NCBI GenBank assembly: GCA_038874595.1
Contig: JAVZCB010000001.1
Coordinates: 1-64,000 of the forward strand
Length of the DNA stretch: 64,000 bases
Source of the DNA: Candidatus Micrarchaeia archaeon
GTDB lineage: Archaea; Micrarchaeota; Micrarchaeia; CAILAH01
Direction: 5' to 3'
The first letter of the stretch is position 1. Every line of letters begins with the position of its first letter. Shown here one piece after another: positions 24,363-42,421 of this stretch. A program made the position numbers and the translations under genes. The notes beneath the pieces are model-generated. The model saw only the letters and a program-made list of their open reading frames with translations, did no database searches and was not told where the DNA came from.

Positions 24363-24516
24363 TGCAGGGAGCAGGAATTTCATACTCTTGATGTGATACG
24401 CATCAAAGGTTTTTGAACCTGCGAAGGCGCTAGGCCACCAGATCTCCCATCACGCGTTTGTGATGAAAGCATACGTGCCTTGAGTCTGGCGCGTTTGACC
24501 ACTCCGCCATCCCTGC
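24363..24516 (-). tRNA. tRNA-Leu(CAA) with two introns (37/38: 24444-24478; 59/60: 24377-24411)
   Basis: GCAGGGA/UCCCUGC acceptor, long variable arm; BHB central helices CUCA/UGGG and UUCA/UGAA. Confidence 0.9.
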
Positions 24517-24732
24517 TTGCTAGGGGCAGATTCCTCCCCTAGTACCCCTGATAGTTTTGTGTGCAAGCCACAAAACGACTATTTGCTTATGCGTGTTTGC
24601 TAGGGGCAGATTCCTCCCCTAGTACCCCTGATAGTTTTGTGTGCAAGCCACAAAACGACTATTTGCTTATGCGTGTTTGCTAGGGGCAGATTCCTCCCCT
24701 AGTACCCCTGATAGTTTTGTGTGCAAGCCACA
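24517..24732. repeat. Perfect 80-bp tandem repeat, about 2.7 copies, two hairpins per unit
   Basis: Identical units at 24521, 24601, 24681; CTAGGGG/CCCCTAG and GTTTTGTG/CACAAAAC inverted repeats. Confidence 0.95.
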
Positions 24733-24796
24733 TCCGGTTCTTTGTGTAAAGTTAAGAATCTCAAAACTATTTAAGTTTGCAAGATAGCAACAAATT

Positions 24797-25471
24797 ATGG
24801 TATGGCAAGGTAATGAGAAGTTTATGTCTCATTTAGGGTATTGCCTGCGTATTATGGAAAAGCAAGGGCGCGCACTAGGTGCCCCGGTGTATGCACTTGA
24901 GGATAACTCAAAAGAAAGCCCTTTTAAGATCTTGGTTTATACAATGCTCTCAGCTAGGACAAGGGATGATGCCACAACCACGGCAGCACGGAATCTTTTT
25001 GAATTTGCATCAACCCCTTCAGATATTGCCGCTATGCCGGTTGGCAGAATTGCATCCTTGATAAAACCGGTTGGCTTCTATAAAGTGAAAGCGCGAAATC
25101 TGAAAAATTTATGTACCAAGCTGCTTGAGAAGTTTAACGGTGGTGTGCCAGATACTTTCGAAGGGCTGGTCTCATTACCTGGTGTTGGGGTAAAAACTGC
25201 GAACGTTGTGCTGGCGCGCGCTTTCAACCATGATGTGATAGGTGTTGATACGCACGTACATAGGATATCCAACCGGCTTGGGCTTGTGAAGACGAAAACC
25301 CCTGAAGAGACCGGCAAGCTATTGAACACAGAAATACCAAAAAAATACAGGAACCGCTTTAACAAGGTGTTTGTAGGGTTTGGCCAAACTGTTTGCAAGC
25401 CAATAGCTCCCAAATGTGCGCAATGCAAAATATTAAAATTCTGCCGTCGCGTAGGAGTGTCTTCATTATAG
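24797..25471 (+). CDS. nth: Endonuclease III (HhH-GPD glycosylase, 4Fe-4S)
   Basis: LPGVGVKTA, VDTHVHR, C-x6-C-x2-C-x5-C. Confidence 0.95.
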   Translation: MVWQGNEKFMSHLGYCLRIMEKQGRALGAPVYALEDNSKESPFKILVYTMLSARTRDDATTTAARNLFEFASTPSDIAAMPVGRIASLIKPVGFYKVKARNLKNLCTKLLEKFNGGVPDTFEGLVSLPGVGVKTANVVLARAFNHDVIGVDTHVHRISNRLGLVKTKTPEETGKLLNTEIPKKYRNRFNKVFVGFGQTVCKPIAPKCAQCKILKFCRRVGVSSL

Positions 25472-25515
25472 AAACATTTATAATAATAAGATGAGAAGGA
25501 GTTTATTGGCAGAAG

Positions 25516-26421
25516 GTGAAGAAAATGGTCACGTTTAAGGATGATGATTTTTCAGGAATTAGTATGAGTTTGAGGAAGGCGATTAAGGATGATCTTAAGA
25601 GAGGCGCTACACACACGGAGATTGCATTGAAATTGTTGAATGATGAGGAGACAAAGATACGCATAAACCCAAAGATACTTACTCCCGATGCAGTAATCGC
25701 AAAGTTTGTTGCGGATAACCCAAAGCTTGCCCGTGAGAATAAGGAAGTTCTTATTGAAGCTTCAAAAATAAACTATAGCATTGACAATTCAAATCACAAA
25801 GCATTTGCGATATGGGCGCTTATTTCATCACATCTATTTTATCACGAGATTAGTGGCTCCGGGCTGAAGCATGCCCGTAGTGCTGAAGAGGCGGAATTGG
25901 CTATTAAAGAATTATATGAAGACCTGAGCAAGCTGCTAACTGGTGAAGATGGGAAATATATGAGTGTGATAGCCCAATTCACAGATATGATGGCACAGCA
26001 CACAGCAAATGTAAGAGAGCTGCTTAATCTAGAAGGCCAGAGGATTAAGGAGATATCTTCTTCTCCTGAAAAATCCTTGCGCTTGCTTCACGATGCAGGG
26101 TATAGGGTAATATTCCTTAAGAAGGGGGAGACAATAGATCCTTTCGTATTACACGTTGCGGCAAACCCGCAGAACGAAAAGGTATTTGTTATTGTTAAAG
26201 TTCATGACGGAAAAGTAAAGGTATCGTTGCGTGCAGTCAATGGCAAGATAGGTGCAAATCTTTACCGTTCCCTTAATGAGGAGGAGAAGTCAGCAAGAGG
26301 TGTTAAGGCACTTGAGCTTGATATGTGGAATGGCAGCGCGGTTGCTGGCGGCTCACCAATAGACGGCACGAAAATACCTTTTGATAGGCTCGCGGTTATC
26401 TTATCCAAGCACAGTTGCTGA
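25516..26421 (+). CDS. Hypothetical protein, weak DHHA1-like C-terminus
   Basis: Long ORF; KVSLR...WNGSAVAGGSP. Confidence 0.6.
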   Translation: MKKMVTFKDDDFSGISMSLRKAIKDDLKRGATHTEIALKLLNDEETKIRINPKILTPDAVIAKFVADNPKLARENKEVLIEASKINYSIDNSNHKAFAIWALISSHLFYHEISGSGLKHARSAEEAELAIKELYEDLSKLLTGEDGKYMSVIAQFTDMMAQHTANVRELLNLEGQRIKEISSSPEKSLRLLHDAGYRVIFLKKGETIDPFVLHVAANPQNEKVFVIVKVHDGKVKVSLRAVNGKIGANLYRSLNEEEKSARGVKALELDMWNGSAVAGGSPIDGTKIPFDRLAVILSKHSC

Positions 26422-26423
26422 TT

Positions 26424-27245
26424 TTAAGGATTTTTCTTATCAGTGTTCCAAGATATTTTTTTAAGCAGGTCGATGAGCTTGTTGCTCTCGTCCATGTTTG
26501 TTAGTGTAATCTTAAACTTAGAGTCATGGACAGCCCCTAGCAGCAGTGCTAGCTCATCCTGGTCTTTCAGGTCCTTTAAGAATTTGGAAAATATCTCCTC
26601 ATTAAGTTTGAATTTTTCCCCGCTGTAATTATGTACAAGTATAACACGCATATCTGTGATTTTATCTCCCTTTACAATCTCAAAGAAAGGAACTTTGTTC
26701 TTGTGTTGCTTTTCAACTGCAGCAAAGTTCTTCTCTGTTTTAGGCTCGAGCGCCATAAATTTCATCTTCAGCTCGCGCATGAGATTTAGCCCTTCAATCC
26801 CATCTTTTTTCAGGCTGGGTGAAACCAAGATGGCTTTTGGCCGCATTCCATATTCAATCATATGCTCACGTGCACCAACCGCGAGCAGCGCTAACACTTC
26901 ATTTTTATGGACATCTTTTTTTTCTGAAATTGCAAAATCCTGCAAGTACATTATGCCTGATGATTTTGAATATACAAAATGCGCCACACCTACTGGTTGG
27001 CCAATGTCATTTTTTGAAACTACCATGAAATTAATTGATTTGCTTATCCCGTAATCACGTGTATAGGTTAGCCTGTCAATTATTTCACGCTGCATAAACT
27101 CATTCATGCTTACAGCTTTCATGATATGTGACAGTGCTGCAGCTCTTAGCATCTTATCCGACTCGTTAGATAATGCGAATGGTGTTACAATGTAACCTTT
27201 GCTTAGAGCCTGCTTGGATTGCTGCTCAAGCTCATCATTGTGCAT
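26424..27245 (-). CDS. Hypothetical protein, possibly GNAT-like fold
   Basis: Start moved to MHNDE, downstream of tRNA-Gln; PVGVAHF..IMYLQDFAI pattern. Confidence 0.55.
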   Translation of the reverse strand: MHNDELEQQSKQALSKGYIVTPFALSNESDKMLRAAALSHIMKAVSMNEFMQREIIDRLTYTRDYGISKSINFMVVSKNDIGQPVGVAHFVYSKSSGIMYLQDFAISEKKDVHKNEVLALLAVGAREHMIEYGMRPKAILVSPSLKKDGIEGLNLMRELKMKFMALEPKTEKNFAAVEKQHKNKVPFFEIVKGDKITDMRVILVHNYSGEKFKLNEEIFSKFLKDLKDQDELALLLGAVHDSKFKITLTNMDESNKLIDLLKKISWNTDKKNP

Positions 27246-27276
27246 AACAATCCTACTCTGCAGAATAATAAAAATA

Positions 27277-27377
27277 TAGCCCCGCCAGGATTCGAACCTG
27301 GGTCTATGGGTTTCCTTTGTGGGGTAGCCCTCCCTCACTTCAAAGCCCACCATCCTTGGCCACTAGACGACGGGGCT
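27277..27377 (-). tRNA. tRNA-Gln(UUG) with 28-nt intron at 37/38 (27312-27339)
   Basis: AGCCCCG/CGGGGCU acceptor, GGUUCGAAUCC T-arm, BHB helix CUUU/AAGG. Confidence 0.92.
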
Positions 27378-27414
27378 ATGCAAGAAATACGTAATGAAAG
27401 CTTAATATCCTTCG

Positions 27415-28131
27415 CTAACGGACCTCTCCGTAATTCTCGTGTGCCTTCTTGAAAAGCATATATTTGAGCGTGTTTGTGGTATGGAATTTTATGAATTTCA
27501 AATACCCCCACTTTTTAAGGCGGCGGATGCTCGTGTAGACGCGGGCATTTTCATGGAACATGAACTCCCCTTTACCTGCAAGCCGCATGCTCAGGTCGCC
27601 ATCCTCAAACGTCTGTAAATCCTCACGGAACCCACCACACTTGAAAAAGGCATCCCTCCTAAAGGCGCTGTTTGAGCCGATAAATGCAGGCTTGTTTATC
27701 TTGATTAGGAATTTTATCCAGCTTTCCGTGTAGAGTTTGCTTCCTATGCGCACGAACATGTCCTCGTGCTCGCTAAGCTTTTCTAAAGGAAATATTGGGC
27801 CCGTTGCCGCGATTACACTCTTCTTACTGAAAGCATCCGCATATGCTGCGAGTAGTGTACGGGATGCAACGCTGTCCCCATCAAGAAAAACAAGATTTCT
27901 GCCTTTTGATGCCTTCGCACCCGTATTCCTTCCTAGCGAGATGCCTTTATCACATAGCACAACTTTATCGGCATATTTCTCGGCTATCCGTACCGTGCCA
28001 TCAGTGCTATGACTGTCTGCAACAATTACTTCATATGACTCATCGGTTTGCTGATTATGAAGCGAGAGCAGGCATCTTTCGATATGTTTTGCCTCATTTA
28101 ATGTAGGTATGATTACAGAGAAAGTTACCAT
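27415..28131 (-). CDS. GT2 glycosyltransferase
   Basis: SVIIPTLNE, DSHSTD, FLDGD, ED, TSIRR. Confidence 0.92.
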   Translation of the reverse strand: MVTFSVIIPTLNEAKHIERCLLSLHNQQTDESYEVIVADSHSTDGTVRIAEKYADKVVLCDKGISLGRNTGAKASKGRNLVFLDGDSVASRTLLAAYADAFSKKSVIAATGPIFPLEKLSEHEDMFVRIGSKLYTESWIKFLIKINKPAFIGSNSAFRRDAFFKCGGFREDLQTFEDGDLSMRLAGKGEFMFHENARVYTSIRRLKKWGYLKFIKFHTTNTLKYMLFKKAHENYGEVR

Positions 28132-28184
28132 TTAATCTAAATGGCCATTTAAAAAATAAAAGCATTGCTGTAAGGCTGTGATAA

Positions 28185-28478
28185 TTAGAATACGTTTTCA
28201 GTCTCTATGACTATCTCCCCATCCTTCTCTATTACCACCACACACGCGAGTCTCTTATCTTCGCTTGCACCACTTATCTCCAATGTTTTTTTCTCTACTT
28301 CGGTCTTTTGATTAAGGAATTCCATTCCTTTAACAATCTTTACAACACAGCTGCCGCACCTGCCAACACCACATGGGAAGTATACACCAATTCCATTATC
28401 TTCAATCACTTTCCTTAGATGCGTTCCGGCAGGAACATCAACTGTCTTATTATCATTTACGAATGTGATTTTTGCCAT
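28185..28478 (-). CDS. 2Fe-2S ferredoxin
   Basis: CGVGRCGSC...RLAC. Confidence 0.92.
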   Translation of the reverse strand: MAKITFVNDNKTVDVPAGTHLRKVIEDNGIGVYFPCGVGRCGSCVVKIVKGMEFLNQKTEVEKKTLEISGASEDKRLACVVVIEKDGEIVIETENVF

Positions 28479-28536
28479 GTTATCACTATGTTATTTTTCT
28501 GCATAATGCTTTTTAAATTAAACAGGATATGGCCCG

Positions 28537-28712
28537 GCTACTTATGTGCTATGGAGGAATAAATGCTCTAACACTTTCCTGTGATACACCCCTGAGAGCT
28601 GCGGCTGCTACTTATGCGATATGCAGGAATAAATGCTCTAACCCAGATATTTAAGGCCGCTTGATTTTGCGCACGCACTAGTTATGCGGCTGAGTGCTGG
28701 AACGGCTATAAC
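28537..28712. repeat. Degenerate array of 36-bp repeats with 34-bp unique spacers (70-bp period)
   Basis: Copies at 28537 and 28607 differ at 3 of 36 nt; a third in-register copy at 28677 matches 20 of 36. Confidence 0.65.
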
Positions 28713-28894
28713 ATATAGGCTATATATACCTCTTAAACCGTTTCTGTATAGGTTTCTATCAAAGAAAGATTAGGATTTGGCTTACAAGTATGCAGTATCT
28801 TTATTGCTCACCTCAGGCCAGAACTTATTAAATTTACCGTGGCAAAAAGAAGGTTTAGAGGGGCATTCGCCTCCCAGCGGTGAGGATAAGGCAA

Positions 28895-29087
28895 GCCTCC
28901 GTAGCTCAGTGGTAGAGCGCTCGCCTCGTATATGGGCTATGGGGAAGTACCCCCTTCCTATAAAAGAAAGCGAGAGGCCAAGGGTTCAAAGTGAGGTTGC
29001 ATCCTCCCATTGCACTCCCTGAAAACTTCGCTTTGTAGGCTAAGGATGCAGTGGGAATGTTTCTTCCTGAAAATCCCTTCGGGGGCT
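28895..29087 (+). tRNA. tRNA-Thr(CGU) with two introns (37/38: 28931-28968; 59/60: 28991-29073)
   Basis: GCCUCCG/CGGGGGC acceptor with U73, CUCGC/GCGAG anticodon stem, AAGGG/CCCUU T-stem, UUCA/UGAA BHB helix. Confidence 0.88.
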
Positions 29088-29091
29088 TTAT

Positions 29092-29919
29092 ATGAAGGAT
29101 ATAGGAATAATTGGTATTGGAAGAGTTGGCGGCCTTCTGGCGTATAATCTTCTGAGTAAGGGCTACAATGTAAAGGCCAATGATGTAGTTGAATCGTATG
29201 CCCGTGGCCAGGTTTTGGACCTTAAGCATGCATTTGCATTCAGCAATGTTTCTGTGGAATTCGCGAAGATAGAGGAGATGCTTGATTCAAAAGTCATAGT
29301 CATTACTGCTGGGTTCCCGCGAGTACCTAATGAAACTCGCGCTAACCTTATGTCCAGGAATAGGACAGTGATTCAAAGTATTCTTGAAAAGCTAAGCGGG
29401 TATGGGGGTACCATTATTACGGTAACAAATCCCGTAGATGCGATAAACACATTAGCGGCCGAAAAGTTTGGGCGTGAAAAGGCATTTGGATTTGGTAATA
29501 CGCTTGATACTGCACGGCTCGTGAGTATTACCGGTGGTGCACTTGATTTTGTAATCGGTGAGCACGGTGAGAATTTTGTCCCCATCCTTTCAAATAAGAA
29601 TACCGATCGTGATAATATCGTTGAGAAAGTGAGGTCAGAAAACCAGTTCGTTGTTGAAAACAAGAAAGGAACAGAATATGCACCAGCATATCATCTTGCT
29701 GAGCTTGCATCTGCAATTGCTGAAGGTGGTGAGTTCACTACGTACGTTTCTGTGTTATGCAACGGCGAATTTGGTGTTGATGGCATCTCAATAGGAGTGC
29801 CTGTTCGTATCCGTGCCGGAAAGCTTCATAGTATTAGTGAGTGCCATCTTGATGATTGGGAAAGGAATCGGTTTGTTATGGGTGTTGAGTCAATAAAAAA
29901 AGCAGTTATGCAAAAGTAG
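29092..29919 (+). CDS. mdh: Malate dehydrogenase (LDH/MDH family)
   Basis: GIGRVG, TAGFPR..TR, VTNPVD, LDTAR, GEHG; Arg at the substrate-specificity site. Confidence 0.8.
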   Translation: MKDIGIIGIGRVGGLLAYNLLSKGYNVKANDVVESYARGQVLDLKHAFAFSNVSVEFAKIEEMLDSKVIVITAGFPRVPNETRANLMSRNRTVIQSILEKLSGYGGTIITVTNPVDAINTLAAEKFGREKAFGFGNTLDTARLVSITGGALDFVIGEHGENFVPILSNKNTDRDNIVEKVRSENQFVVENKKGTEYAPAYHLAELASAIAEGGEFTTYVSVLCNGEFGVDGISIGVPVRIRAGKLHSISECHLDDWERNRFVMGVESIKKAVMQK

Positions 29920-29921
29920 TT

Positions 29922-30647
29922 TTACTTAGGGCTATCAGCTTCTTTAAGAGCCAGTGAGAGTTCTATCACACTCATGATTGCATTCATAGTCTCGTAATCG
30001 TGTATGCGCCCTATATCTGCCCAGTACTCAGTGAATTTATACCCACTGATTTTCTTGCCCTGCTCAAGCAGGCGCGGGAACACGTGCTTTGCAAAATCCT
30101 CTTTCGGGTTGATATAATCAAATATCTCCGGCTCAAGGATGTATATACCTGCATTTATCAGATTTGATAGTATCGGCTTTTCCATAAATGTGCTTATAGT
30201 ATCATCGTCATTTAGGCCCACGATCCCATACTCAACAGGTGTGCCCTGCATTTTTAGCGCGATTGTTGCGATGTTATTTTTCTTCTTATGGAAGGCTAAC
30301 ATCTCATCAACATTTATTGCTGTTATATGGTCCCCCATCCCAACAAAAAATGTTTCTGTGAGTTTGTTTTTTGCACCGAGCACCGAGCCGGCAGTATTCA
30401 ATTTCTCATTCTCAATTACATACTCAATGTTAACACCAAATTTTGAGCCGTCCCCAAAATAATCAAATATCTTATCGTGCAGGTATCCAACGGTCAATAT
30501 AAAATCCCGAATACCATACCGCTTGAGGTTGAGCAGCACAAACTCAAGTATGGGCCTGTTTCCTAGGCGCAGCATCGGTTTAGGGATGTTGTATGTATAT
30601 GGCCTCAGGCGGGTCCCTTCACCACCGCACAATATTACAGCTTTCAT
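29922..30647 (-). CDS. Sugar-phosphate nucleotidyltransferase
   Basis: GGEGTRLRPYT..PKPM, EKP, WADIG. Confidence 0.93.
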   Translation of the reverse strand: MKAVILCGGEGTRLRPYTYNIPKPMLRLGNRPILEFVLLNLKRYGIRDFILTVGYLHDKIFDYFGDGSKFGVNIEYVIENEKLNTAGSVLGAKNKLTETFFVGMGDHITAINVDEMLAFHKKKNNIATIALKMQGTPVEYGIVGLNDDDTISTFMEKPILSNLINAGIYILEPEIFDYINPKEDFAKHVFPRLLEQGKKISGYKFTEYWADIGRIHDYETMNAIMSVIELSLALKEADSPK

Positions 30648-30668
30648 TTCATAACCTCCAAATTATCA

Positions 30669-31811
30669 TTAATCAGATTTTCTGATTTCCTTTTCCCAGC
30701 GTTGAAATTTACCATCAAAACGCTCGATTGTGTCAAGTATCTTTTCAGTAGAGTGGCCATCCCCGTATGGGTTTGGGGCGGAAGCCATTCTCGTGTACAC
30801 CTCTTTGTTCTCAAGCACGTTTTTTGTTTCGTGGATTATGTCCTCTTTTTTAAATCCGATGCACTTGTTTGAGCCTGTTGCAAGCGTCTCGGGCCTATCC
30901 GTTACATAGCGCAAAGTCAAGCAAGGTATGTGCATGCAGGCAGTCTCCTCTTGAAGCCCGCCGCTATCTGTGAGTACCAGGTCAGATGATTTTACAAGAG
31001 ATAATACATCAGTATATTTTTCAAGCGAGGGGTATGCCCATATGATATGACTAGCTGATGTAAGACGGTCAAGATATCCGTATTCCTTTGCGGCGCGCTG
31101 TGTCCCTGGCAGCACAGCACAAAATATTGTATACTCCTTAAGTGCAAGGAGGGCCTCAAATATGCCTTCCATACGTTGCCTGCTCATTGTGTTTTCGCGC
31201 CTGTGTGCCGAGAAAAATATAAGCTTCTTTCCAGCAGGGATTTTGAGCTGTTCCCTGATTTTTGGGTTTTTGTTACCGTAAATCCTGACAGCATCAACAA
31301 TGGTGTTGCCAACAACGAATATCCTGTCCTTTGGGAAACCTTCATTCAAGAGGTTTTTGTAGTTTGTCTCAGTAGCCGGGAAGTAAAGTGAGGATGCCGC
31401 ATCTGCACATCTTGTGCAAATCTGCTCCGGAAACGGCTCCCACGAATGCGTACGCAGCCCAGATTCAATATGGCCTACGGGAATCAAGCATAACGCGCTT
31501 GCAATTGATGCAAACAGTGCAGTAAAGGTATCCCCGTGTACAAGCACGATATCTGGCATTTCATTGCGCAGGATTGGTTCAAGCTTTGTTATGACGCCGC
31601 TACCTATTTCACACGGTGTGCCTCGCACATCTAAAGAATAATGCGGCCTCTCAATACCAAGGTCATCAAACACGCCAGAAAACAGTTCCCTGTCATAATG
31701 CTGCCCGGTCCATACGATGATATTTGTATGGCCGCGCCGTTTTGCTTCGCTTATTATTGGTGCCATCTTTATTATCTCAGGCCGTGTGCCCATACAGTGC
31801 ATTATTTTCAT
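30669..31811 (-). CDS. wecB: UDP-N-acetylglucosamine 2-epimerase (non-hydrolysing)
   Basis: GTRPEIIK, GQHYD, HIESGLR, HRREN, DSGGLQEE, NPYGDG. Confidence 0.95.
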   Translation of the reverse strand: MKIMHCMGTRPEIIKMAPIISEAKRRGHTNIIVWTGQHYDRELFSGVFDDLGIERPHYSLDVRGTPCEIGSGVITKLEPILRNEMPDIVLVHGDTFTALFASIASALCLIPVGHIESGLRTHSWEPFPEQICTRCADAASSLYFPATETNYKNLLNEGFPKDRIFVVGNTIVDAVRIYGNKNPKIREQLKIPAGKKLIFFSAHRRENTMSRQRMEGIFEALLALKEYTIFCAVLPGTQRAAKEYGYLDRLTSASHIIWAYPSLEKYTDVLSLVKSSDLVLTDSGGLQEETACMHIPCLTLRYVTDRPETLATGSNKCIGFKKEDIIHETKNVLENKEVYTRMASAPNPYGDGHSTEKILDTIERFDGKFQRWEKEIRKSD

Positions 31812-33038: not shown

Positions 33039-33228
33039 TGCCAAGGGGGGGATTTTCAGGACGCTAGTTATAAGCCCCTTTGAACCCCCGACTTCCAGAT
33101 TGCCCAGAAACGCCTTATATATCATCGCACGTTTAAAGTGCTCATAACTCACAAGACACGAAAGGGACCGGAGCCCCCAGCCCTTTTCTTATGAGTCTGG
33201 CGCTCTAGCCAGGCTGAGCTACCTTGGC
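33039..33228 (-). tRNA. Elongator tRNA-Met(CAU) with two introns (37/38: 33101-33189; 59/60: 33053-33078)
   Basis: GCCAAGG/CCUUGGC acceptor, CCAGA/UCUGG anticodon stem, BHB helices CUCA/UGGG and UUCA/UGAA. Confidence 0.9.
33119..33156 (-). ncRNA. Intron-encoded K-turn (D'/C'-type) guide element antisense to the host pre-tRNA anticodon
   Basis: UCUUGUGAGUU-AUGA-GCAC(loop)GUGC-GAU-GA; guide pairs with GACUCAUA|AGA; N+5 position is C34. Confidence 0.65.
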
Positions 33229-35135: not shown

Positions 35136-35396
35136 TTACAATTCTTTTTTTAACCATTCATACTGCGGTTTTAATTGTGTTTGGTTATAATAATATATTG
35201 AATCATTTACGAGCCACAGGTCGGTGCTTTGCATTGTTTTTATGGTGCTTGAATAATCCTGGAACTGTAGGTAGTAATGGTTGGTTAATAGCACAATCAA
35301 TAGGAGAAGCATAAGCAGTGATAGTGCCGGCTCCAAAGATATTATAAATCCACGTTTGCTTTCTGATATACCTACGTTGATTCTGTAAGTTCTCAA
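35136..35396 (-). CDS. Pilin-like protein (class III signal peptide)
   Basis: KRG/FIISLE followed by a hydrophobic helix; start uncertain. Confidence 0.6.
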   Translation of the reverse strand: MRTYRINVGISESKRGFIISLEPALSLLMLLLLIVLLTNHYYLQFQDYSSTIKTMQSTDLWLVNDSIYYYNQTQLKPQYEWLKKEL

Positions 35397-35397
35397 T

Positions 35398-35763
35398 TCA
35401 GCACACCTCAAGTATTCCAACTTCTTTTATGTCCTTAACATAAACTCCTCGTTTTACGCAGATTAAACTTTGTGGGCCGCCATAGTAATACCCGGATGTT
35501 GTTCTTAATGATACATTTTGTGGCTTTAATGTCTGCAATTTTGCAAGCGTAATCTCGTTGTCCCTCCCTTCAGATAACTGAGATAACACACCATAACTGC
35601 GCGCAATCACAGATGCAATCTGATTGCTTGCTTTTAAGTTATTGTTTGCGCTTGATGTGATTACTGATGCTACATCAGTACATACTACCAGCATAAATAG
35701 CACTAATATAAATGCAATTATCAGGTCAATGTCAAGTATCCCGAGGTTTCTAATCTCCACCAC
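35398..35763 (-). CDS. Pilin-like protein
   Basis: RNLG/ILDID followed by a hydrophobic helix; GTG start inferred. Confidence 0.55.
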   Translation of the reverse strand: MVEIRNLGILDIDLIIAFILVLFMLVVCTDVASVITSSANNNLKASNQIASVIARSYGVLSQLSEGRDNEITLAKLQTLKPQNVSLRTTSGYYYGGPQSLICVKRGVYVKDIKEVGILEVC

Positions 35764-36046
35764 CTTGTCTCTTGTATATCTCAGCTGAAGTGATAACATT
35801 ATTTTCCCTGCAAACGGAAGCATTACCTACTGAGCAGGTTAGGTGCGGGTTGAAATAACCATGCATAATTGTGTATGAATATGCTGTTGCAATCAGTGCC
35901 GTTGATGTTGCGCGTTTTTCCAAGCATGCCATCGTAATTCCTTTTGACTGCTTATCCAAAACTGCTCCAAGCGATGCCTGAAATATTGCAACTATCATTA
36001 TTAATAAGAGAATCCCTATGAGTGCTTCAACACTTATGCTTGTCAT
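35750..36046 (-). CDS. Pilin-like small protein
   Basis: SISVE followed by an N-terminal hydrophobic helix. Confidence 0.55.
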   Translation of the reverse strand: MTSISVEALIGILLLIMIVAIFQASLGAVLDKQSKGITMACLEKRATSTALIATAYSYTIMHGYFNPHLTCSVGNASVCRENNVITSAEIYKRQGGGD

Positions 36047-36056
36047 AGTTATACCT

Positions 36057-36662
36057 TCATCTTACCTGAATATTTCTAAGTATATCTACATCATATATCT
36101 CGTGTTCTTTATCTGCAATCGTAATGCCTATCGCTGGCATCAGCACAGATAAGTCCTCAGTTGTTTCCAAATTCCCCCTCCCTATATTTATCCTTCCTGT
36201 AACTTGGTCTACAACAATGACAGATGAGCAGGCGTGCATTTCAACTCCAACTCCACGCACGCGTATAACCACCTTATCGTGTGGCTCAAATACTAAAGGA
36301 GGTTTTGTGCTCAGCCCAGCTTTTGCAGATTCAAGCATAAAATCAAGCGATGGGGTAGCTATATATCCGCACCATATATCAATTTTATATTCATTATCTT
36401 GCTCAACAATCGATTCAAAATTCTCAAGTCTTTGCGCGACCTCTTCAATTTTTTTGTAAGGTTCAGTTTCTCTGGTTGGTGTTGTTAGTACATTTTGTAT
36501 GCCACGTTTTATCTTTATCTTTTTATCATAAAATTTTTGGAGGTGATTTGTCTGCTCTTCCAGATAATATGAGGATTTTATTTCAGCATTGTAATACGTA
36601 TATATGACCACAAGAAACTCTGCTAAGAGCATAACAAGCAGGAACGAGAGTATGCCCCTCAC
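36057..36662 (-). CDS. Pilin-like / class III signal peptide protein
   Basis: MRG/ILSFL followed by a hydrophobic helix. Confidence 0.6.
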   Translation of the reverse strand: MRGILSFLLVMLLAEFLVVIYTYYNAEIKSSYYLEEQTNHLQKFYDKKIKIKRGIQNVLTTPTRETEPYKKIEEVAQRLENFESIVEQDNEYKIDIWCGYIATPSLDFMLESAKAGLSTKPPLVFEPHDKVVIRVRGVGVEMHACSSVIVVDQVTGRINIGRGNLETTEDLSVLMPAIGITIADKEHEIYDVDILRNIQVR

Positions 36663-36708
36663 ACAATCACATATGTTTTTAAATTGTCATTCTTTAAAAG
36701 AGTGATAT

Positions 36709-36851
36709 AGCGGGGTAGGGCAGCCTGGAGTGCCCGCCGGGCTCATAGCAGGGAGGTATTCCGTTCCCTGTAACCCTGGTAGTTTTTGTTTCGTAAAAGT
36801 AAACTACCTGGAGAAACCCGGAGGCCGTTGGTTCAAATCCAACCCCCGCTA
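36709..36851 (+). tRNA. Initiator tRNA-Met(CAU) with 68-nt intron at 37/38 (36748-36815)
   Basis: A1-U72 AGCGGGG/CCCCGCU acceptor, three G-C pairs in the anticodon stem. Confidence 0.93.
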
Positions 36852-36874
36852 TTCTTGTTTTTCTAAGTGATCAA

Positions 36875-37465
36875 ATGGGTACTATAATAGGAATAGACCT
36901 TGCAGGTAGTGAGAAAAGAGATAGTGGTCTTGCCATAATGAGAAAAAATGTGTTCATTCATGTTGGAATTGTTCACACAGATAATGAGATACTAAAAATA
37001 ATCAAAGAAGCAAAACCAAAACTGGTTGCCATAGATGCACCGCTCACATTACCTAAAGGAAGGAAAAGTATAAATCAAAAAAATGATGTGCATTTTAGGG
37101 AGTGTGATATACAATTAAGAGAACGTAGGATACGGTTTTTCCCCATAACACTTGGCCCGATGCGAATGCTTACTAAAAGGGGAATAAAATTGAAAAAACA
37201 AATTGAAAAGCAAAGAAGGAGGGTAATTGAAGTGTTCCCGGGCGCCAGCTATGATATATGGAATGTTGAACGAAAAAATAAAGGGAAAATATTAGGATTA
37301 TTCAAAAAGATGGGGTTTAAATTTGTAAAGAGGGTGTACACGCAGGATGAGATAGATGCAATGTGTTGTGCAATAACCGGGCTGTTTGCATTAAAGAAAA
37401 AAGCAACCTCCCTGAATGGAAAAGATGGGTGTATATTTATACCAAAATTATTTTCAAAAGTTTAG
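36875..37465 (+). CDS. DUF429-type predicted nuclease (RNase H-like fold)
   Basis: GIDLA, AIDAPL, RECD, IEVFPGA, DEIDA. Confidence 0.8.
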   Translation: MGTIIGIDLAGSEKRDSGLAIMRKNVFIHVGIVHTDNEILKIIKEAKPKLVAIDAPLTLPKGRKSINQKNDVHFRECDIQLRERRIRFFPITLGPMRMLTKRGIKLKKQIEKQRRRVIEVFPGASYDIWNVERKNKGKILGLFKKMGFKFVKRVYTQDEIDAMCCAITGLFALKKKATSLNGKDGCIFIPKLFSKV

Positions 37466-37935
37466 TGCTTTTTAAAGGGATTGTACTCAGAACTGTGCTT
37501 GTATGTAGCCAGTATGACATAGGTTGATGTCCTTATAACTCCAGGAGTGTTTTGTATTTTTGCAATTACTTCTGTTAATTCGTTTATGTCTTTCACTTCA
37601 ACAAATGCAATTGCATCGCTCGGCCCGGCAGTTCCATATAACGCAATAAGCTGTGGAATATGCAAAATTCCACTAACTTGCCCATTCTTACCAACGTTTA
37701 AGACATTCACCCCGCGCGTTTTCATCATAATAGCAGCCCGCAGTTTAAGCCCAAGCTTACTGTAATCTATGTCCGCTGAGTATCTCCTTATTACACCTTC
37801 CCTTTCAAGCCTCTTTATTCTTAGCATTACCGTATTTGGATGTGCTTTTAATTTCTCTGCGATCTCCTTGTATGAAAGGTTTGCGTGTTCACGCAATTCG
37901 CGCAATATCCCAATATCTAAATCGTCAACTTTCAT
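37462..37935 (-). CDS. Lrp/AsnC transcription regulator
   Basis: DDLDIGIL..SYKEIA..RIKRLEREGVI HTH with a C-terminal RAM domain. Confidence 0.93.
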   Translation of the reverse strand: MKVDDLDIGILRELREHANLSYKEIAEKLKAHPNTVMLRIKRLEREGVIRRYSADIDYSKLGLKLRAAIMMKTRGVNVLNVGKNGQVSGILHIPQLIALYGTAGPSDAIAFVEVKDINELTEVIAKIQNTPGVIRTSTYVILATYKHSSEYNPFKKH

Positions 37936-37944
37936 CAGAGCACC

Positions 37945-38880
37945 TTACCATTCTATATCATCTTCCTCTTTGCTTTCTTGGTTGTTGAGAGCGTATTCTA
38001 TAATGTTCCAACCTCTTGCCGTTTTGTTAAGCAAATATTCCTCTCTCATGTTCTCATCGTCAATTTTTATATTTGTAATCACTTTATACCCACCACATTC
38101 CAACGGAGTATCATCACATTTTTTTTGCATGTTGTTTATGATCTCAAGTCTAATTTCTATATCTCTTCCTATGCCATTTTTAATATCCTCAATAAACTTT
38201 TTATATAGCGTCAAATTCTCATTATTCAGAGAAACTTCAAAACTGCTTGGCTTTTTTTGATACATATTATCTGCAATTATTTTTACACGGCCCTTTTCAA
38301 AGTAAACAAAAATGATATCTTTATTATCGCTATCTACATAGACTTGAGAGTATTGTGCGCTCTTATCATGTAAGTTTATTTTATAAGAAGGGTGAGTAGG
38401 CTTTTTGAATAAAATATCTTCGATGTGTCGGATTTCTATACTCACGTTGCTATACTCGCAAACATATTCTCCAAAAATATACAAATTATTACTTGTAATT
38501 TTGTTCACACAAATAGTATCCTCGTTTATAGAATATACTGCTTGGAGCACTTTTTTATCTTCTTCTGGTAACGTATACATGTAATATATTCCTTTTCCAA
38601 AGAGATACGAATACGATCCAGAGTGGGATAAATCTGTATCAATTATGCTGGAACAACCTGTGTTGATAATTTTGATTTGGGATTCATCATCTATGGATGT
38701 AGTTATAATTCCCTCTGCCATTACAGGCCTGCTCAGGAAAAGAGATGCGGCAATCAACCCGCCTGCAGCAATCTTCTTTAGAGCGTTCTTTGGTTTTAGA
38801 TTGTTGAGTTTATTTTTTACAAAGTCTTTTATCTTACCAATTTTTCCTTTTTCGTTTTCAACTTTTTTTATTTCATACAT
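37945..38880 (-). CDS. Secreted hypothetical protein, shared-leader family member 3
   Basis: Long Lys-rich n-region, then LIAASLFLSRPVMA/EG; AT-rich. Confidence 0.75.
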   Translation of the reverse strand: MYEIKKVENEKGKIGKIKDFVKNKLNNLKPKNALKKIAAGGLIAASLFLSRPVMAEGIITTSIDDESQIKIINTGCSSIIDTDLSHSGSYSYLFGKGIYYMYTLPEEDKKVLQAVYSINEDTICVNKITSNNLYIFGEYVCEYSNVSIEIRHIEDILFKKPTHPSYKINLHDKSAQYSQVYVDSDNKDIIFVYFEKGRVKIIADNMYQKKPSSFEVSLNNENLTLYKKFIEDIKNGIGRDIEIRLEIINNMQKKCDDTPLECGGYKVITNIKIDDENMREEYLLNKTARGWNIIEYALNNQESKEEDDIEW

Positions 38881-38894
38881 ATTTTACCACCTTT

Positions 38895-39866
38895 TCATAA
38901 TCTTGTACCAACAGACCCAAAATCTACAGGTACATCAAATTCTACTGATTTTTTTGAGTATTTTATTGAATGATTGCCAGATAGTGGGTTTATTATAAGT
39001 ATATTTTCATACTCTCTGCTTCCCTCTAAAATCAGTTCTATGTTTCCATTGTTGAATAATATTATAGAATACCTAAGATTTTTGATATACTTTTGCCATA
39101 ACAAACTAGCACTGTTATTGACATTATTGATTTTGTATGCGTATAATTTGTAGCCAGTAGCATTACCCTCTTTATCTTCAAATTTTCTAAGTGCAAAAAT
39201 ATAGTTTTTTGAATTTATTTTAGCACAGTAGATATCCGTAATATATATAGAGTCATAGTTTAAGGATAGTGAGTTGCATTTTTCATTGATTAAACTATTA
39301 AGCAGTGTGTTTTCAAATCCAGCGTATATTTCTTTGTTGTTTTTTGTGAGATACAGGTACAAATTAATTAGGTCTGCTTTATTGCATATTTTTAATGTTG
39401 TTTTGTTTTCGTTTTCATTTTCGTTTTCATTGTTCATCATAAAAACTACATTTTCAAAATTGTTTTTGTCTTCCTCTTGATCATTATTGATTTTTTTGCA
39501 TATGTATTCAGTGTTTTGGTATGGGATTTCAATACGGTTATTGTTTGCATCTTTGAAAACAATCACTTTGATAGGAACATTACTTTTTTCATTCGTATCT
39601 TTTTTTTCTTCGAAGCTTACTTTAACTTCGTTGCGAGGTTCTTCAGCCATCACCGGTTGTTTGAGGAATAGCGATGCAGCCATCATGCCATAAAACCCAT
39701 ATGTTGCAGTTTTTTTCAATTTCTCCTTAATGTTTGCAAACCGTCCGGTGTTTTTTTCTTTTACTACTTTTGCGCCAAGCTTTCCTTTGAAGAACTCTTT
39801 TGCTCCCGCAAAGAGATTTTTTTCCTTTTTAATTCCGATCTTTTTGAATTCATTCATATGCTTCAC
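38895..39866 (-). CDS. Secreted hypothetical protein, shared-leader family member 2
   Basis: KKTATYGFYGMMAASLFLKQPVMA/EE; AT-rich. Confidence 0.75.
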   Translation of the reverse strand: MKHMNEFKKIGIKKEKNLFAGAKEFFKGKLGAKVVKEKNTGRFANIKEKLKKTATYGFYGMMAASLFLKQPVMAEEPRNEVKVSFEEKKDTNEKSNVPIKVIVFKDANNNRIEIPYQNTEYICKKINNDQEEDKNNFENVVFMMNNENENENENKTTLKICNKADLINLYLYLTKNNKEIYAGFENTLLNSLINEKCNSLSLNYDSIYITDIYCAKINSKNYIFALRKFEDKEGNATGYKLYAYKINNVNNSASLLWQKYIKNLRYSIILFNNGNIELILEGSREYENILIINPLSGNHSIKYSKKSVEFDVPVDFGSVGTRL

Positions 39867-40725
39867 CTATACCAATTTTTTTAGTGTTAATCGAACTTAC
39901 TTCTTTTTTATTTGTACGATTTACTGCGCTTACATTCGTTTTATCACTATTCAAACACTTACTAATATTGAATGTATGAAAATCCTTTCCTACGGAATAC
40001 TGCAGATTTCCACCATCATAAAGTAGTGGGTCTTCACCATATATGGTTTTATTGCATAGATTTTTGATGTCGTTCTCGGTTTTGTAAACATGCAGGATAT
40101 ATTTCAAAATACTATTTCTGTCTTTTTCTAGTGCCAAAAAATACTTATCCGGTCCTTTTACAAAACATGCTTTATCTACGATGTTGTTGTTTTCTACACT
40201 TTGGCATTCTTCTTTAATCAGCATATCAAATTGGTCCTCGTCATACCTTGTATACATGCTATATCTGAATTGAGATGCTTTGTAGCTATTTGGGGAAGGC
40301 GCATATTTCCCAAGGATTTTCAGCAAGGTCCCAGTATTACATATAAAAGAGGTCACTTCCTGGTTTTGGGATTTTTTCAAAAATATGAGCTGCTCGTTAA
40401 AGGGAACTCCTTTATAATCATAGCATTTTACCATCTCTATATCTTCTGGTATTTTGATTTTCAATAGATACTCTTCTTTATTATTCCCCCTGAAAAAAAT
40501 CAACTCGTTATCATTCTTAGGGTTTTCTCTCACCTGCTCTATATTTAAGTTTTTGTAATTTTCTTCTGCCATTACCGGCGGTTTCATAAAAATAGACACA
40601 GCCATCAAGCCGTAGAGCCCATACTTCGCGGCCTTTTTTGTTGCTGATTTTATTTTTTCGAAAAGGCTTTTTCTTGGCCTATCAATATCAATACTCTCCG
40701 GGTTTTTGTGTTTGATGTTTTTCAT
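39850..40725 (-). CDS. Secreted hypothetical protein, shared-leader family member 1
   Basis: KKAAKYGLYGLMAVSIFMKPPVMA/EE; AT-rich. Confidence 0.75.
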   Translation of the reverse strand: MKNIKHKNPESIDIDRPRKSLFEKIKSATKKAAKYGLYGLMAVSIFMKPPVMAEENYKNLNIEQVRENPKNDNELIFFRGNNKEEYLLKIKIPEDIEMVKCYDYKGVPFNEQLIFLKKSQNQEVTSFICNTGTLLKILGKYAPSPNSYKASQFRYSMYTRYDEDQFDMLIKEECQSVENNNIVDKACFVKGPDKYFLALEKDRNSILKYILHVYKTENDIKNLCNKTIYGEDPLLYDGGNLQYSVGKDFHTFNISKCLNSDKTNVSAVNRTNKKEVSSINTKKIGIGEAYE

Positions 40726-40912
40726 GATTTGTTATTAGCATGTTAAATTTTATAAACTTTTTTGTTTTTTTTGTGTAAAACCACAAAAAATAAATATTAT
40801 ATTGTAAAAAATAACAAAATCATGTCTAGGTTCAATACATAAAAACGTCGTATTATCTGTCTAAGCATTGCACATTTTACTTGCTTATAAAATAGCACCT
40901 ATATAATTAGTC

Positions 40913-41377
40913 ATGGCAAAGGTGTATTCTGTTCTGTATGAGGGCAGGTTTGAGGATGGCCAGGTTTTTGATGCGTCAGAAGAAGGCGCACCGCTTGTTT
41001 TTATTGGCGGTGCGGGGATGGTTATAGAAGGTTTTGAAAAAGGCATAGAAGGTATGGAGCCTGGCCAAGAAAAGGAAATAATAATCCCTCCTGAGGAGGG
41101 ATATGGCTACGCACATAAGGAGCTAATCATCAAGATGCCGAAAAGTGTCCTCGAAGGCATGCCTGATGTGCGTCCCGGCATGGAGATTGTGGCAACATTG
41201 GAAAACGGTGAGCAGGTACCTGTGAAGGTCTTATCGCTAGATGAGAGCACAGTAACGTTTGATTTCAATCATCCGCTTGCAGGCAAGACGCTCATTTTTA
41301 GGATTAAGCTTCTTGACAAGCACGAGGCAACGGATGAGGAGCTCGAGCAATTTTTTGGGGAGAGGAATACACAATAA
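40913..41377 (+). CDS. FKBP-type peptidyl-prolyl isomerase (SlyD-like)
   Basis: YEGRFEDGQVFD, IPPEEGYG, DFNHPLAGKTL. Confidence 0.93.
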   Translation: MAKVYSVLYEGRFEDGQVFDASEEGAPLVFIGGAGMVIEGFEKGIEGMEPGQEKEIIIPPEEGYGYAHKELIIKMPKSVLEGMPDVRPGMEIVATLENGEQVPVKVLSLDESTVTFDFNHPLAGKTLIFRIKLLDKHEATDEELEQFFGERNTQ

Positions 41378-41415
41378 GTAGGATGCTTTATAATTTTACT
41401 AACTTATTTTATTTG

Positions 41416-41988
41416 ATGTCTATTGAAGACATAGCTGCAAAGGTTAAAGTATGTACAAAGTGCTCTTTGTGCAAGACGAGGATAAAAGCCGTACCCGGCG
41501 AAGGTAATTCAAACGCTAAAATAATGCTAATCGGTGAGGCGCCTGGTGCAAGTGAGGATGAGCAGGGTAAGCCATTTGTTGGTGCTGCTGGCAAACTGCT
41601 TAACCAAATGCTTGAAAATGCAGGGCTTAAGCGGGAGGATGTATTTATAACAAACATAGTAAAGTGTAGACCGCCCGGGAACCGGGACCCGTTGCCAGAG
41701 GAAAAGACTGCCTGTTCACCTTATCTTGATGCACAAATTGAGGCAATACAACCAGCTGTGATAGTTTGCCTTGGCAGGCACTCTGCTGAATATATGTTCA
41801 GTAAGTTTGGGATCGAGTTCCCAGGTATTACTAAAGCACGCGGCCAGCCTCGCAAGGTGGATTCACTTTTTGGCCATTTTATACTGTTCCCAACCTATCA
41901 CCCCGCTGCAACGATTTATAACCAGCAGCTTAGACCGGTTTTGGAGAGTGATTTTAAGGTGCTTGCAGGGTTAGTGAAAGCATATTGA
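41416..41988 (+). CDS. Family 4 uracil-DNA glycosylase
   Basis: CTKCSLC, GEAPG, PFVG, KCRPPGNR, HPAA. Confidence 0.95.
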   Translation: MSIEDIAAKVKVCTKCSLCKTRIKAVPGEGNSNAKIMLIGEAPGASEDEQGKPFVGAAGKLLNQMLENAGLKREDVFITNIVKCRPPGNRDPLPEEKTACSPYLDAQIEAIQPAVIVCLGRHSAEYMFSKFGIEFPGITKARGQPRKVDSLFGHFILFPTYHPAATIYNQQLRPVLESDFKVLAGLVKAY

Positions 41989-42070
41989 GCAAAATATTTT
42001 AACTTCTGATACTCTGATGTAAAATTAATTGAAGCATATATAAGCTTTTTCTATTTTAACTATACCACAC

Positions 42071-42421
42071 GGGCCAGTAGCTCAGCCTGGTCAGAGCGGC
42101 GGTCTTATATGGCTCCGTCTGATAAAGTATGTAAGACTCAGGCTAAGAGAGCCGTAGGTCGGGAGTTCAAAGCACTGATGGAAGGGGGCACATCCCCCTC
42201 GCACATTCGCACTTGCGAATGGCGCATCGTTTGGCTTTGCCAAACGATTGTCCCTCGTGTGGTCTACACCTAACCCCCTGAGATATGGAGGAGGTGTAGC
42301 ACTGATGGAAGGGGCACATCCCCCTTCTCAACCCACCTATCCCCTATGAGGGTTTGGGTGTGCGAAAGAAGTGGATTTGGGTTCCTCTCCACACTTTAGT
42401 TTGAAAATCTCCCCTGGCCCA
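42071..42421 (+). tRNA. tRNA-Ile(UAU) with two introns (37/38: 42110-42149; 59/60: 42172-42407, 236 nt)
   Basis: GGGCCAG/CUGGCCC-A acceptor, GGGAG/CUCCC T-stem, BHB helices CUUA/UAAG and UUCA/UGAA; TATATAA upstream. Confidence 0.85.
42172..42325 (+). repeat. ~27-bp palindromic direct repeat inside the tRNA-Ile intron
   Basis: GCACTGATGGAAGGGG(G)CACATCCCCCT at 42172 and 42299. Confidence 0.9.

Follow-up and report, generated by a model that had tools for sequence, protein, structure and literature searches.

The stretch analyzed here, hereafter the window, is the first 64,000 nt of contig C1 (C1:1-64000) from the genome of a Candidatus Micrarchaeia archaeon. This source genome, labelled G000, comprises 0.92 Mb on 7 contigs and is 93.5% complete; relatives are labelled G001 onward. 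The window contains exactly six transfer RNA (tRNA) genes, specifying Leu-CAA, Gln-UUG, Thr-CGU, elongator Met-CAU, initiator Met (iMet) and Ile-UAU, and each is interrupted by at least one intron (Table 1). A first-pass annotation had reported that all six genes are split, and had proposed that tRNA splicing in this lineage produces small structured or guide RNAs, with a hairpin module spreading among the introns. To locate the genes, a custom finder paired T-arms with 7-bp acceptor stems, permitting gaps, and a parser read the anticodon arm. The parsed genes contain 10 introns of 26-236 nt, six at position 37/38 and four in the T-loop at position 59/60, and following in silico splicing ARAGORN reads all six products as standard tRNAs with the expected anticodons. 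The intron count, positions and sizes in the first-pass annotation are therefore confirmed.

Standard tools largely miss these genes. ARAGORN with default settings called zero tRNAs in the window, and permitting introns led to several wrong calls, with iMet read as Ser and two genes read as “Pyl”. Rfam detected one of the six genes (Gln) at the gathering score and two at E <= 10. The intron-tolerant scan of the whole genome that the first-pass annotation had called for was run with the custom finder, and yielded 41 tRNA genes plus one further candidate. Only 5 of the 41 are uninterrupted, leaving 36 (88%) with introns: 20 genes have an intron at 59/60, 29 have a parsed intron at 37/38, and 3 more have introns in the D-loop. 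The parser required tolerance of a mismatch at 27:43; the 3 genes with D-loop introns were left unparsed and the candidate, at C2:18751, was dropped. In silico splicing turned every one of the 38 parsed genes into a sequence that ARAGORN reads as a standard tRNA carrying the expected anticodon. Given the genome-wide rate of 88%, six split genes out of six are unremarkable (chance ~0.46); the split state is not peculiar to the window, and the pattern spans the genome. The longest intron in the genome is 386 nt, as compared to 236 nt in the window. The additional introns in the D-loop region are found in a Leu gene (C3:148867-149234), a Ser-like gene (C3:108053-108239) and a Val-like gene (C4:107767-107924), such that intron positions in this genome extend beyond 37/38 and 59/60.

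Table 1. Coordinates of the tRNA genes, introns and associated features in the window.
Feature	Coordinates	Strand	Details
tRNA-Leu(CAA) gene	24363..24516	-	introns 24444-24478 (37/38, 35 nt) and 24377-24411 (59/60, 35 nt)
Leu-CAA leader array	24517..24732	+ (antisense to tRNA)	80-nt units, 2.7 copies, 100% matches (Tandem Repeats Finder, TRF)
tRNA-Gln(UUG) gene	27277..27377	-	intron 27312-27339 (37/38, 28 nt); Rfam tRNA 50.9 bits
Weak Thr-leader hairpin	28855..28880	+	visible in sequence; at most a decayed module copy
tRNA-Thr(CGU) gene	28895..29087	+	introns 28931-28968 (37/38, 38 nt) and 28991-29073 (59/60, 83 nt)
Elongator tRNA-Met(CAU) gene	33039..33228	-	introns 33101-33189 (37/38, 89 nt) and 33053-33078 (59/60, 26 nt)
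Met intron conserved core	33121..33156	-	antisense element, D'-like box, stem-loop, C'-like box
Met intron variable insert	33160..33188	-	intron nt 2-30; hairpin of 11 bp with purine and pyrimidine arms, 5' arm 83% purine (RNAfold)
Initiator tRNA-Met (iMet) gene	36709..36851	+	intron 36748-36815 (37/38, 68 nt)
tRNA-Ile(UAU) gene	42071..42421	+	introns 42110-42149 (37/38, 40 nt) and 42172-42407 (59/60, 236 nt)
Ile T-loop intron block	42171..42291	+	121 nt, at intron start, common to other tRNA introns

Splicing motif and splicing machinery

All four T-loop introns in the window end in UGAAAW, as the first-pass annotation had claimed (UGAAAA in three, UGAAAU in one). This shared ending is a consequence of the bulge-helix-bulge (BHB) splicing motif. 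Genome-wide, 20 of 20 T-loop introns pair their positions −6 to −3 with nucleotides 54-57 of the T-loop. The outer helix of this structure is the T stem (5 bp); one bulge consists of A58, A59 and the first intron nucleotide, and the other of the last two intron bases and U60. Where the T-loop reads UUCA, the pairing intron strand is UGAA, UGGA or UGAG. CGAA is found only in the tRNAs for His and Asp, the two with a UUCG loop, which represents direct covariation. AA follows the pairing strand in 17 of the 20 T-loop introns. Because 37/38 introns, too, most often end in AA (17 of 29), this dinucleotide reflects a general preference at the bulge rather than a T-loop signature. Covariation with the T-loop sequence rules out UGAAAW as a cargo motif.

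The central helix of the BHB has all four pairs in the four window T-loop introns, and at least three Watson-Crick pairs, plus G-U, in all 20 T-loop introns of the genome. Among the window introns at 37/38, all four pairs form, counting G-U, in Ile, Met, Gln and Leu; the helix is weaker in iMet (three of four pairs) and in Thr, where only two of four pairs form in a relaxed motif. A contiguous inner helix, as in the strict hBHBh' form, is found solely in the two Met introns (4 bp each), with the Met T-loop intron being a strict hBHBh' case. The other eight window introns are of the relaxed hBH type, with a local hairpin in place of the inner helix. The 37/38 intron of tRNA-Leu(CAA) can fold either as a BHB or into an alternative 10-bp hairpin whose 3' strand finishes at the 3' splice site, and both folds are retained through compensatory changes in G002 and G006.

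The first-pass annotation had pointed to the broad-specificity splicing endonucleases of the Thermoproteales and ARMAN/Micrarchaeota, and suggested typing the subunit architecture of EndA. The sole EndA gene of G000 has its domains at C7:3-733 (locus L002). Since this copy is broken by the contig start and a 10-N gap, the full three-unit form is readable only in relatives. The G002 orthologue is 392 amino acids (aa) long and is 95% identical over the part retained in G000. Over its full length it matches the three-unit epsilon2 enzyme of ARMAN-2, PDB 4fz2 (E = 1.8e-124), and the EndA open frame spans 383-540 aa in all 20 relatives with a match. G000 also encodes the ligase RtcB (572 bits), as well as fibrillarin, Nop5 and L7Ae, and RNase P RNA is present. 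The lineage is Micrarchaeota-like and is predicted to have a broad-specificity, epsilon2-type EndA together with RtcB, which fits the comparison made in the first-pass annotation. The idea that EndA performs 5' processing at the leader hairpins owing to a missing RNase P was rejected: RNase P RNA is present, and the leader geometry is unlike a BHB. A strict scan of the genome for canonical box C/D small RNAs (sRNAs) returned one candidate locus, C7:1508-1564, which is not intronic; it sits near the EndA locus.

Hairpins and repeat families

A hairpin of at least 6 bp that starts within the first four bases was predicted by RNAfold in 8 of the 10 window introns. Genome-wide, such start hairpins are found in 39 of 49 introns, as compared to 20.0 +/- 3.6 (maximum 29) in dinucleotide shuffles. 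The purine fraction of the 5' arm is 0.83-0.88 in Gln, Met and iMet, and 0.64 in Thr. The Gln intron is little else than a hairpin at nt 2-21 and the BHB 3' strand, and the Thr 37/38 intron begins, at nt 1, with a 32-nt hairpin. The Ile T-loop intron has two GGGG/CCCC hairpins, both further inside the intron, and every 80-nt unit of the Leu leader contains one. Under a strict definition, which demanded GGG:CCC within an unbroken stem of 5 bp or more, the count fell to 3 of the 10 window introns versus 1.07 in the null, with 22 of 500 shuffles reaching 3 (p ~0.04). Purine-armed GGG/CCC hairpins with stems of at least 7 bp are clustered, with 19 of 43 falling within the 2.2% of the genome around tRNA genes. 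The recurring GGG(G)/CCC(C) hairpin described in the first-pass annotation is therefore real for the start hairpins, the Ile intron and the Leu leader, but its strict form is infrequent, and the weak hairpin in the Thr leader is unsupported, having no significant alignment or profile match to any hairpin family. Start hairpins of the opposite polarity, in which the 5' arm is pyrimidine-rich (CUUUUUCUUU-type) and the 3' arm purine-rich, occur in 7 introns versus 1.9 expected; these include the introns at C1:93393, C2:556, C2:115085 and C6:35067, and none is in the window.

The first-pass annotation had proposed clustering the introns all against all. When the window introns were compared with all introns, leaders and trailers by BLAST and Smith-Waterman alignment, significant similarity was confined to the Ile T-loop intron and the Leu leader, with the iMet intron reaching it marginally. 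The other window introns were without a significant match, and the start hairpins of the Gln, Thr and Met 37/38 introns had no significant similarity within G000.

The Leu leader and the iMet intron belong to a repeat family that we refer to as module A. This module consists of a hairpin (H1), a tail of the form ACCCC-GG-AGUUUU, and a second, A/U-rich hairpin (H2). An nhmmer search of the genome with a profile built from six copies identified 9 copies at E <= 3e-5, all at tRNA genes: three units in the Leu-CAA leader (E = 3e-11, 3e-11 and 1e-8), one each in the leaders of Pro-GGG, Leu-CAG, Leu-GAG and Leu-UAA, one in the iMet intron, which is a single sense copy (E = 1.6e-8), and one in the T-loop intron of Val-GAC. 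The Leu-CAA array begins 4 nt from the tRNA +1. All five leader loci are antisense to the tRNA transcript, while both intron copies are sense and start at intron nt 1-2. A strict rule of sense copies in introns and antisense copies in leaders would fit 7 of 7 loci in G000, but was rejected since intron copies in relatives include two antisense along with five sense. Among 15 copies from five genomes, 82% of H1 cells are paired, and 20 double changes affect 6 of 9 pairs, a level reached in 0 of 500 shuffles. The alignment of module A copies revealed no conserved single-stranded antisense segment or box motif common to them.

A second, Ile-type family is represented by the block at the start of the Ile T-loop intron, which is 100% identical over its 121 nt to C3:129011-129131, within the 205-nt 37/38 intron of tRNA-Arg(GCG). 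Weaker copies are found at C2:44092-44190 (Cys-GCA intron, inverted), C1:202306-202465 (Ile-GAU T-loop intron), C3:148982-149150 (a Leu intron) and C3:54630-54760 (a Ser trailer). The Ile gene used as a query has 24 matches in G001, mostly to its module part. Of 17 Ile-type copies in G001, ~11 are in or beside tRNA genes and ~6 are in other spacers, and at least two module A copies in G001 also lie away from tRNAs; exclusive linkage of the repeats to tRNA genes is thus refuted. The His T-loop intron contains a repeated unit with its own UGAAAU-like end.

Other repeats were observed near tRNA genes. In the long spacer upstream of tRNA-Thr, at ~28525-28715 (+) and outside the Thr leader hairpin region, there are two, possibly three, direct repeats of ~36-40 nt spaced ~80 nt apart. 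Relatives have short tRNA-adjacent cassettes closed off by a duplicate of either the first 15-18 or the last 8-25 bases of that tRNA, at loci L044 (G005 iMet), L056 (G005 Ile), L036 (G019 Thr), L051 (G009 iMet) and L096 (G001). These cassettes resemble miniature attachment-site duplications or “tRNA-linked repeats”.

One possible interpretation is that there is no shared element: each hairpin would have arisen independently, by convergence, as the GC-rich inner helix that BHB introns in a thermophile require beside the 5' bulge. The absence of significant matches for most window introns among other introns, leaders and trailers is consistent with this model, as is the marginal excess of strict hairpins in the window (3 vs 1.07, p ~0.04); moreover, the start hairpin of a short intron is simply the inner BHB helix. 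Nevertheless, module A is recovered at E = 1e-8 to 1e-12 and has a conserved tail (ACCCC-GG-AGUUUU) and second hairpin that are not part of the BHB, two introns share 121 nt of 100% identity, the Ile-gene query has its 24 matches in G001, and copies occur in leaders and trailers, where a BHB is not needed. We therefore consider a complete absence of shared elements very unlikely. This model is refuted as a complete account, and is the best one only for five window introns, namely the two of Leu, the T-loop introns of Thr and Met, and the 37/38 intron of Ile. The first-pass annotation had regarded introns with no shared motifs beyond BHB constraints, relative to shuffled controls, as the outcome that would speak against its proposal. 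While the strict hairpin test is marginal in this respect, module A and the 121-nt identity exceed what the BHB demands, and together with the compensatory changes in H1 they bear out the suggestion of a spreading hairpin module. There are thus three kinds of hairpin: helices adjacent to the BHB, copies of hairpin-led repeats, and decayed remnants. Much of the hairpin recurrence follows from a BHB motif handled by a known type of enzyme.

Turnover among relatives and a guide-like Met intron

Each of the six window tRNA genes was compared with 20 relatives, of which G001 and G002 belong to the same genus. Three of the 37/38 introns are old and have a conserved sequence: those of Met (across the class), Ile-UAU (11 genomes) and Leu-CAA (G002, G006 and G005). 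Bases 1-101 of the Ile-UAU gene, which span the 37/38 intron, are 74-92% identical in 11 relatives. This intron has a hairpin with a covarying stem and an AUAUA-rich loop beside a conserved CUGA, and some of the relatives that share it are in other families. It may be required for an anticodon modification that stops UAU from reading AUG.

The other three 37/38 introns, in iMet, Gln and Thr, are younger; the genes are uninterrupted in several class-level relatives, and within the family the introns are filled with differing modules or tandem arrays. The iMet gene is intronless in G009, G018 and G020, has other modules or tandem arrays in G005, G006 and G008, and has a T-loop intron in G001, G003 and G007. 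The Gln gene has no intron in the family member G005 or in class-level relatives, and in G001, G007 and G008 a full module A stands at the start of the intron. The 37/38 intron of Thr in G001 is longer and hairpin-led but starts in the same way. Since relatives hold full modules at the same positions, the start hairpins of the Gln, Thr and Met introns in the window can be read as short or eroded versions of modules.

T-loop introns are patchy and non-homologous even within the genus. Thr has no T-loop intron in G001, and the Thr T-loop introns of G006 and G007 are unrelated in sequence to that of the window. Conversely, G001 has T-loop introns in iMet and Gln, both of which are absent from G000. 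In G002, the closest relative, the Leu T-loop intron is unrelated to that of the window despite 93% identity in the exons and the 37/38 intron, and the T-loop intron of Ile is an unrelated sequence of 31 nt versus 236 nt in G000. The leader array of Leu is also absent from G002, where a promoter-like A/T-rich box lies directly upstream of the tRNA. The box C/D-like layout proposed for the Thr T-loop intron was rejected as a guide: the intron is not conserved, being absent in the same-genus G001 and unrelated in G006 and G007.

The 37/38 intron of elongator tRNA-Met carries a conserved guide-like element. In this conserved core, an antisense element of 11 nt is accompanied by a D'-like box, which reads AUGA here and CUGA in most relatives, a stem of 4 bp with its loop, and a C'-like box (GAUGAU). 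The geometry resembles a kink-turn (K-turn), and the stem sequence varies across relatives yet stays complementary. The antisense element pairs with G30-A37 and intron nt 1-3, giving eight to ten pairs. Counting from the box, the fifth nucleotide of the element lies opposite C34, and the element changes in step with intron nt 1-3. The core is found in 11 of 12 orthologues across the class. The orthologue without it is that of the class-level relative G014 (locus L024), where the intron is replaced by a ~130-nt A-rich low-complexity tract. The core has one D'/C'-like pair, and terminal C and D boxes were not found. The neighboring variable insert corresponds to differing hairpin modules in G003, G006, G007 and G008, and is absent in G001, G004, G005, G013, G015 and G018.

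In archaeal elongator tRNA-Met, 2'-O-methylation of C34 (Cm34) is directed by a box C/D RNA whose pairing bridges the junction of exon and intron (PMC2584109; PMC4033218). A 2008 survey described the tRNA-Met guide as “always exonic”, i.e., a separate sRNA such as sR49 or sR-tMet, in contrast to the intronic guide of tRNA-Trp (PMC2584109; PMC4033218). The element in the Met intron resembles the pre-tRNA-Trp guide, sR49 and sR-tMet in having an antisense that spans the junction and places C34 five nucleotides from a D-type box. Unlike sR49 and sR-tMet, it is located inside the Met intron, and has a single K-turn of the D'/C'-like type. The Met intron thus carries a putative half guide of the box C/D-like type, probably for 2'-O-methylation of C34. 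Because the antisense pairs across the exon-intron junction, methylation would have to precede splicing. If functional, an intron-borne half guide for tRNA-Met would be a new arrangement.

A further interpretation, in line with the first-pass annotation, is functional cargo, whereby splicing and leader removal would release structured, possibly circular, small RNAs, with the module serving as a protein-binding or guide scaffold. Compensatory changes that maintain H1 pairing are consistent with this model, as is the mostly sense orientation of module A copies in introns (2 of 2 here, 5 of 7 in relatives). In addition, the proteins of the C/D ribonucleoprotein are encoded, and so is RtcB, which circularizes introns; and one intron, Met, does have a conserved guide-like element. 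Set against these observations, the presence, copy number and type of module vary at orthologous sites among same-genus genomes, five of five leader loci are antisense to the tRNA, and G001 has copies at non-tRNA intergenic sites. Moreover, modules have no shared antisense segment or box motif, and the sole canonical C/D sRNA from the strict scan is not intronic. We therefore regard functional cargo as an improbable explanation for the repeats. The proposal that splicing yields functional small or guide RNAs does not hold as a general rule, given the within-genus turnover, the antisense leaders and the non-tRNA sites, and it survives for the Met 37/38 intron only, with its conserved guide-like element.

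Origin of the repeats and known systems

The best explanation for these data, and in our view a fairly probable one, is that the window contains ordinary BHB tRNA introns spliced by an epsilon2 enzyme that accepts relaxed motifs, along with selfish or neutral hairpin repeats and a single guide-like element in Met. Only a minority of the 37/38 introns would be old, with a conserved sequence. The epsilon2-type endonuclease would tolerate relaxed BHB motifs at any position, and RtcB would join the exons. In the T-loop, pairing of U54-A57 with intron positions −6 to −3 (UGAA) would give the shared UGAAAW ending. In short introns the start hairpin would be the inner BHB helix. In longer introns a local hairpin would lie right after the 5' bulge, where a helix is wanted, and most such hairpins would come from short, palindromic, hairpin-led repeat families. 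We infer that the local hairpin substitutes for the inner helix, which would account for its being kept exactly after the 5' bulge. Palindromic repeats would pile up in the discarded parts of pre-tRNAs, i.e., intron starts, leaders and trailers, with some hairpins being eroded remnants of repeat copies. As selfish or neutral DNA, the repeats would be copied between introns at differing positions, amplified in tandem, and variable within a genus. Within a single genus, genomes already diverge in their repeats as well as in their T-loop introns, and both therefore behave like selfish repeats, not like conserved cargo; the repeats are likely to have no function of their own.

The repeats are reminiscent of bacterial repetitive extragenic palindromic (REP) sequences and bacterial interspersed mosaic elements (BIMEs), palindromes like miniature inverted-repeat transposable elements (MITEs), and the tRNA-linked repeats of E. 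coli. These are short, non-coding, multi-copy imperfect palindromes whose stems are kept by compensatory change. REP/BIME and MITE-like repeats are concentrated in non-coding DNA and vary between close strains, and the repeats of G000 have the same traits. Unlike the bacterial REP/BIME sequences, they reside in an archaeal host, no REP-associated tyrosine transposase (RAYT) or other Y1-type transposase was detected with them, and their preferred sites are inside or against tRNA genes.

Several observations count against this explanation. No transposase or integrase that could move the repeats was found, with PF01797 (Y1), PF07282 (TnpB) and PF00589 (tyrosine recombinase) all unmatched in the 93.5% complete genome. 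Module A lies 1-4 nt from the tRNA +1 at four of the five leader loci (90 nt at Leu-UAA), which is closer than would be expected if insertions were simply tolerated, and a module A copy in G007 also abuts the +1 (5' end) of a tRNA-Leu. The maintenance of H1 pairing by compensatory change could signal that an RNA product, and not a DNA palindrome, is under selection. Lastly, no relatives could be detected among other introns for five window introns: the two of Leu, the T-loop introns of Thr and Met, and the 37/38 intron of Ile. Because no transposase or integrase was found, the label “mobile” is based solely on copy patterns. The lack of any PF00589 match in G000 also means that no XerA-type recombinase was detected, whereas one is present in all 14 control genomes.

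Another interpretation is a more active process, in which hairpin-led repeats home to sites of tRNA maturation and create new BHB introns by a DNA-level or RNA-mediated route. Consistent with this model, 9 of 9 module A copies are at tRNA genes, with leader copies 1-4 nt from +1 and intron copies at nt 1-2. T-loop introns are present, absent or wholly different inside one genus; the 37/38 introns of iMet, Gln and Thr are missing in class-level relatives and module-built in the family; and the repeat unit of the His T-loop intron bears its own UGAAAU-like end. While these data are consistent with active intron-making, interpretation is confounded by the lack of any match to a Y1 transposase, TnpB or tyrosine recombinase across a genome that is 93.5% complete. 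Furthermore, no target-site duplication was seen on comparing filled with empty Thr T-loop or Leu leader sites, and no terminal inverted repeats were seen. Some G001 copies are far from tRNAs, orientation in long introns is not fixed, and selection favoring a helix next to the cut site, instead of targeting, could account for the tight junctions. On balance, active homing seems doubtful. A related suggestion, which we put forward tentatively as a minority possibility, is that the hairpin-led repeats are agents of BHB intron birth that, with no recognizable transposase, land at or are copied to pre-tRNA cut points (the RNase P site, the 5' splice site and T-loop position 59/60), carrying or acquiring the strand that completes the BHB.

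The closest precedents are the tRNA set of ARMAN-2 and intron transposition in the Thermoproteales. In the published description of ARMAN-2 (Candidatus Micrarchaeum acidiphilum), 56% of 43 tRNA genes are disrupted, with relaxed hBH introns at 59/60, several introns per gene, a tRNA-Ile(UAU) in a genome without TiaS, and an epsilon2 enzyme that accepts relaxed BHB forms (Fujishima et al. 2011, PMC3239211); the structure of its EndA is 4FZ2 (PMC3488258). G000 resembles ARMAN-2 in its three-unit EndA of roughly 390 aa, 59/60 hBH introns and multi-intron genes and, going by that description, in having tRNA-Ile(UAU) in place of the agmatidine route. Because ARMAN-2 has the 59/60 hBH introns, the 56% of genes disrupted and tRNA-Ile(UAU) without TiaS, the basic intron system was already known, and G000 is a more extreme case. 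Relative to the figures given for ARMAN-2, 88% of genes are split here versus 56%, and half of the genes have a 59/60 intron. Further differences from the description in PMC3239211 are intron lengths that reach 236 nt (window) and 386 nt (whole genome), and the make-up of many introns from repeat modules.

Work from 2010 on the Thermoproteales reports near-identical introns across tRNA genes and positions, read there as evidence for recent spread by an unknown DNA-level mechanism (summarized in PMC4090602). The 121-nt identity between a 59/60 and a 37/38 intron in G000 is the same type of evidence as reported there. Important differences from the Thermoproteales, so far as that report describes them, are that G000 belongs to a different phylum with a different endonuclease type, that the shared units are hairpin modules smaller than an intron, that modules are also found in leaders (inverted), trailers and some non-tRNA spacers, and that they are amplified in tandem. 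A 2026 census of Asgard archaea found most tRNA genes to be interrupted, with repeated recent gains at BHB-capable sites and no arrival route found. Most tRNA genes are likewise interrupted in G000; unlike in the Asgard genomes, copying between introns and the repeat modules are directly visible.

In practice, tRNA counts for genomes of this kind are badly underestimated, since almost all of these genes escape standard finders. Constraint (the UGAA strand and the bulge-adjacent hairpin) can be separated from cargo, and the Met gene offers a candidate intron-borne guide for Cm34 where earlier surveys had only stand-alone guides. The Thermoproteales work inferred transposition of tRNA introns without a mechanism. 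Bearing on how archaeal tRNA introns arrive are the 100% identity over 121 nt between introns at differing tRNA positions, the repeat modules exactly at RNA cut sites, and the complete turnover of T-loop introns within a genus. With this genome and its relatives, the question of intron arrival is testable by comparative and population genomics. If the repeats are agents of intron birth, new introns would still be arising and being exchanged within the genus, making this lineage a live, tractable system for studying intron arrival.

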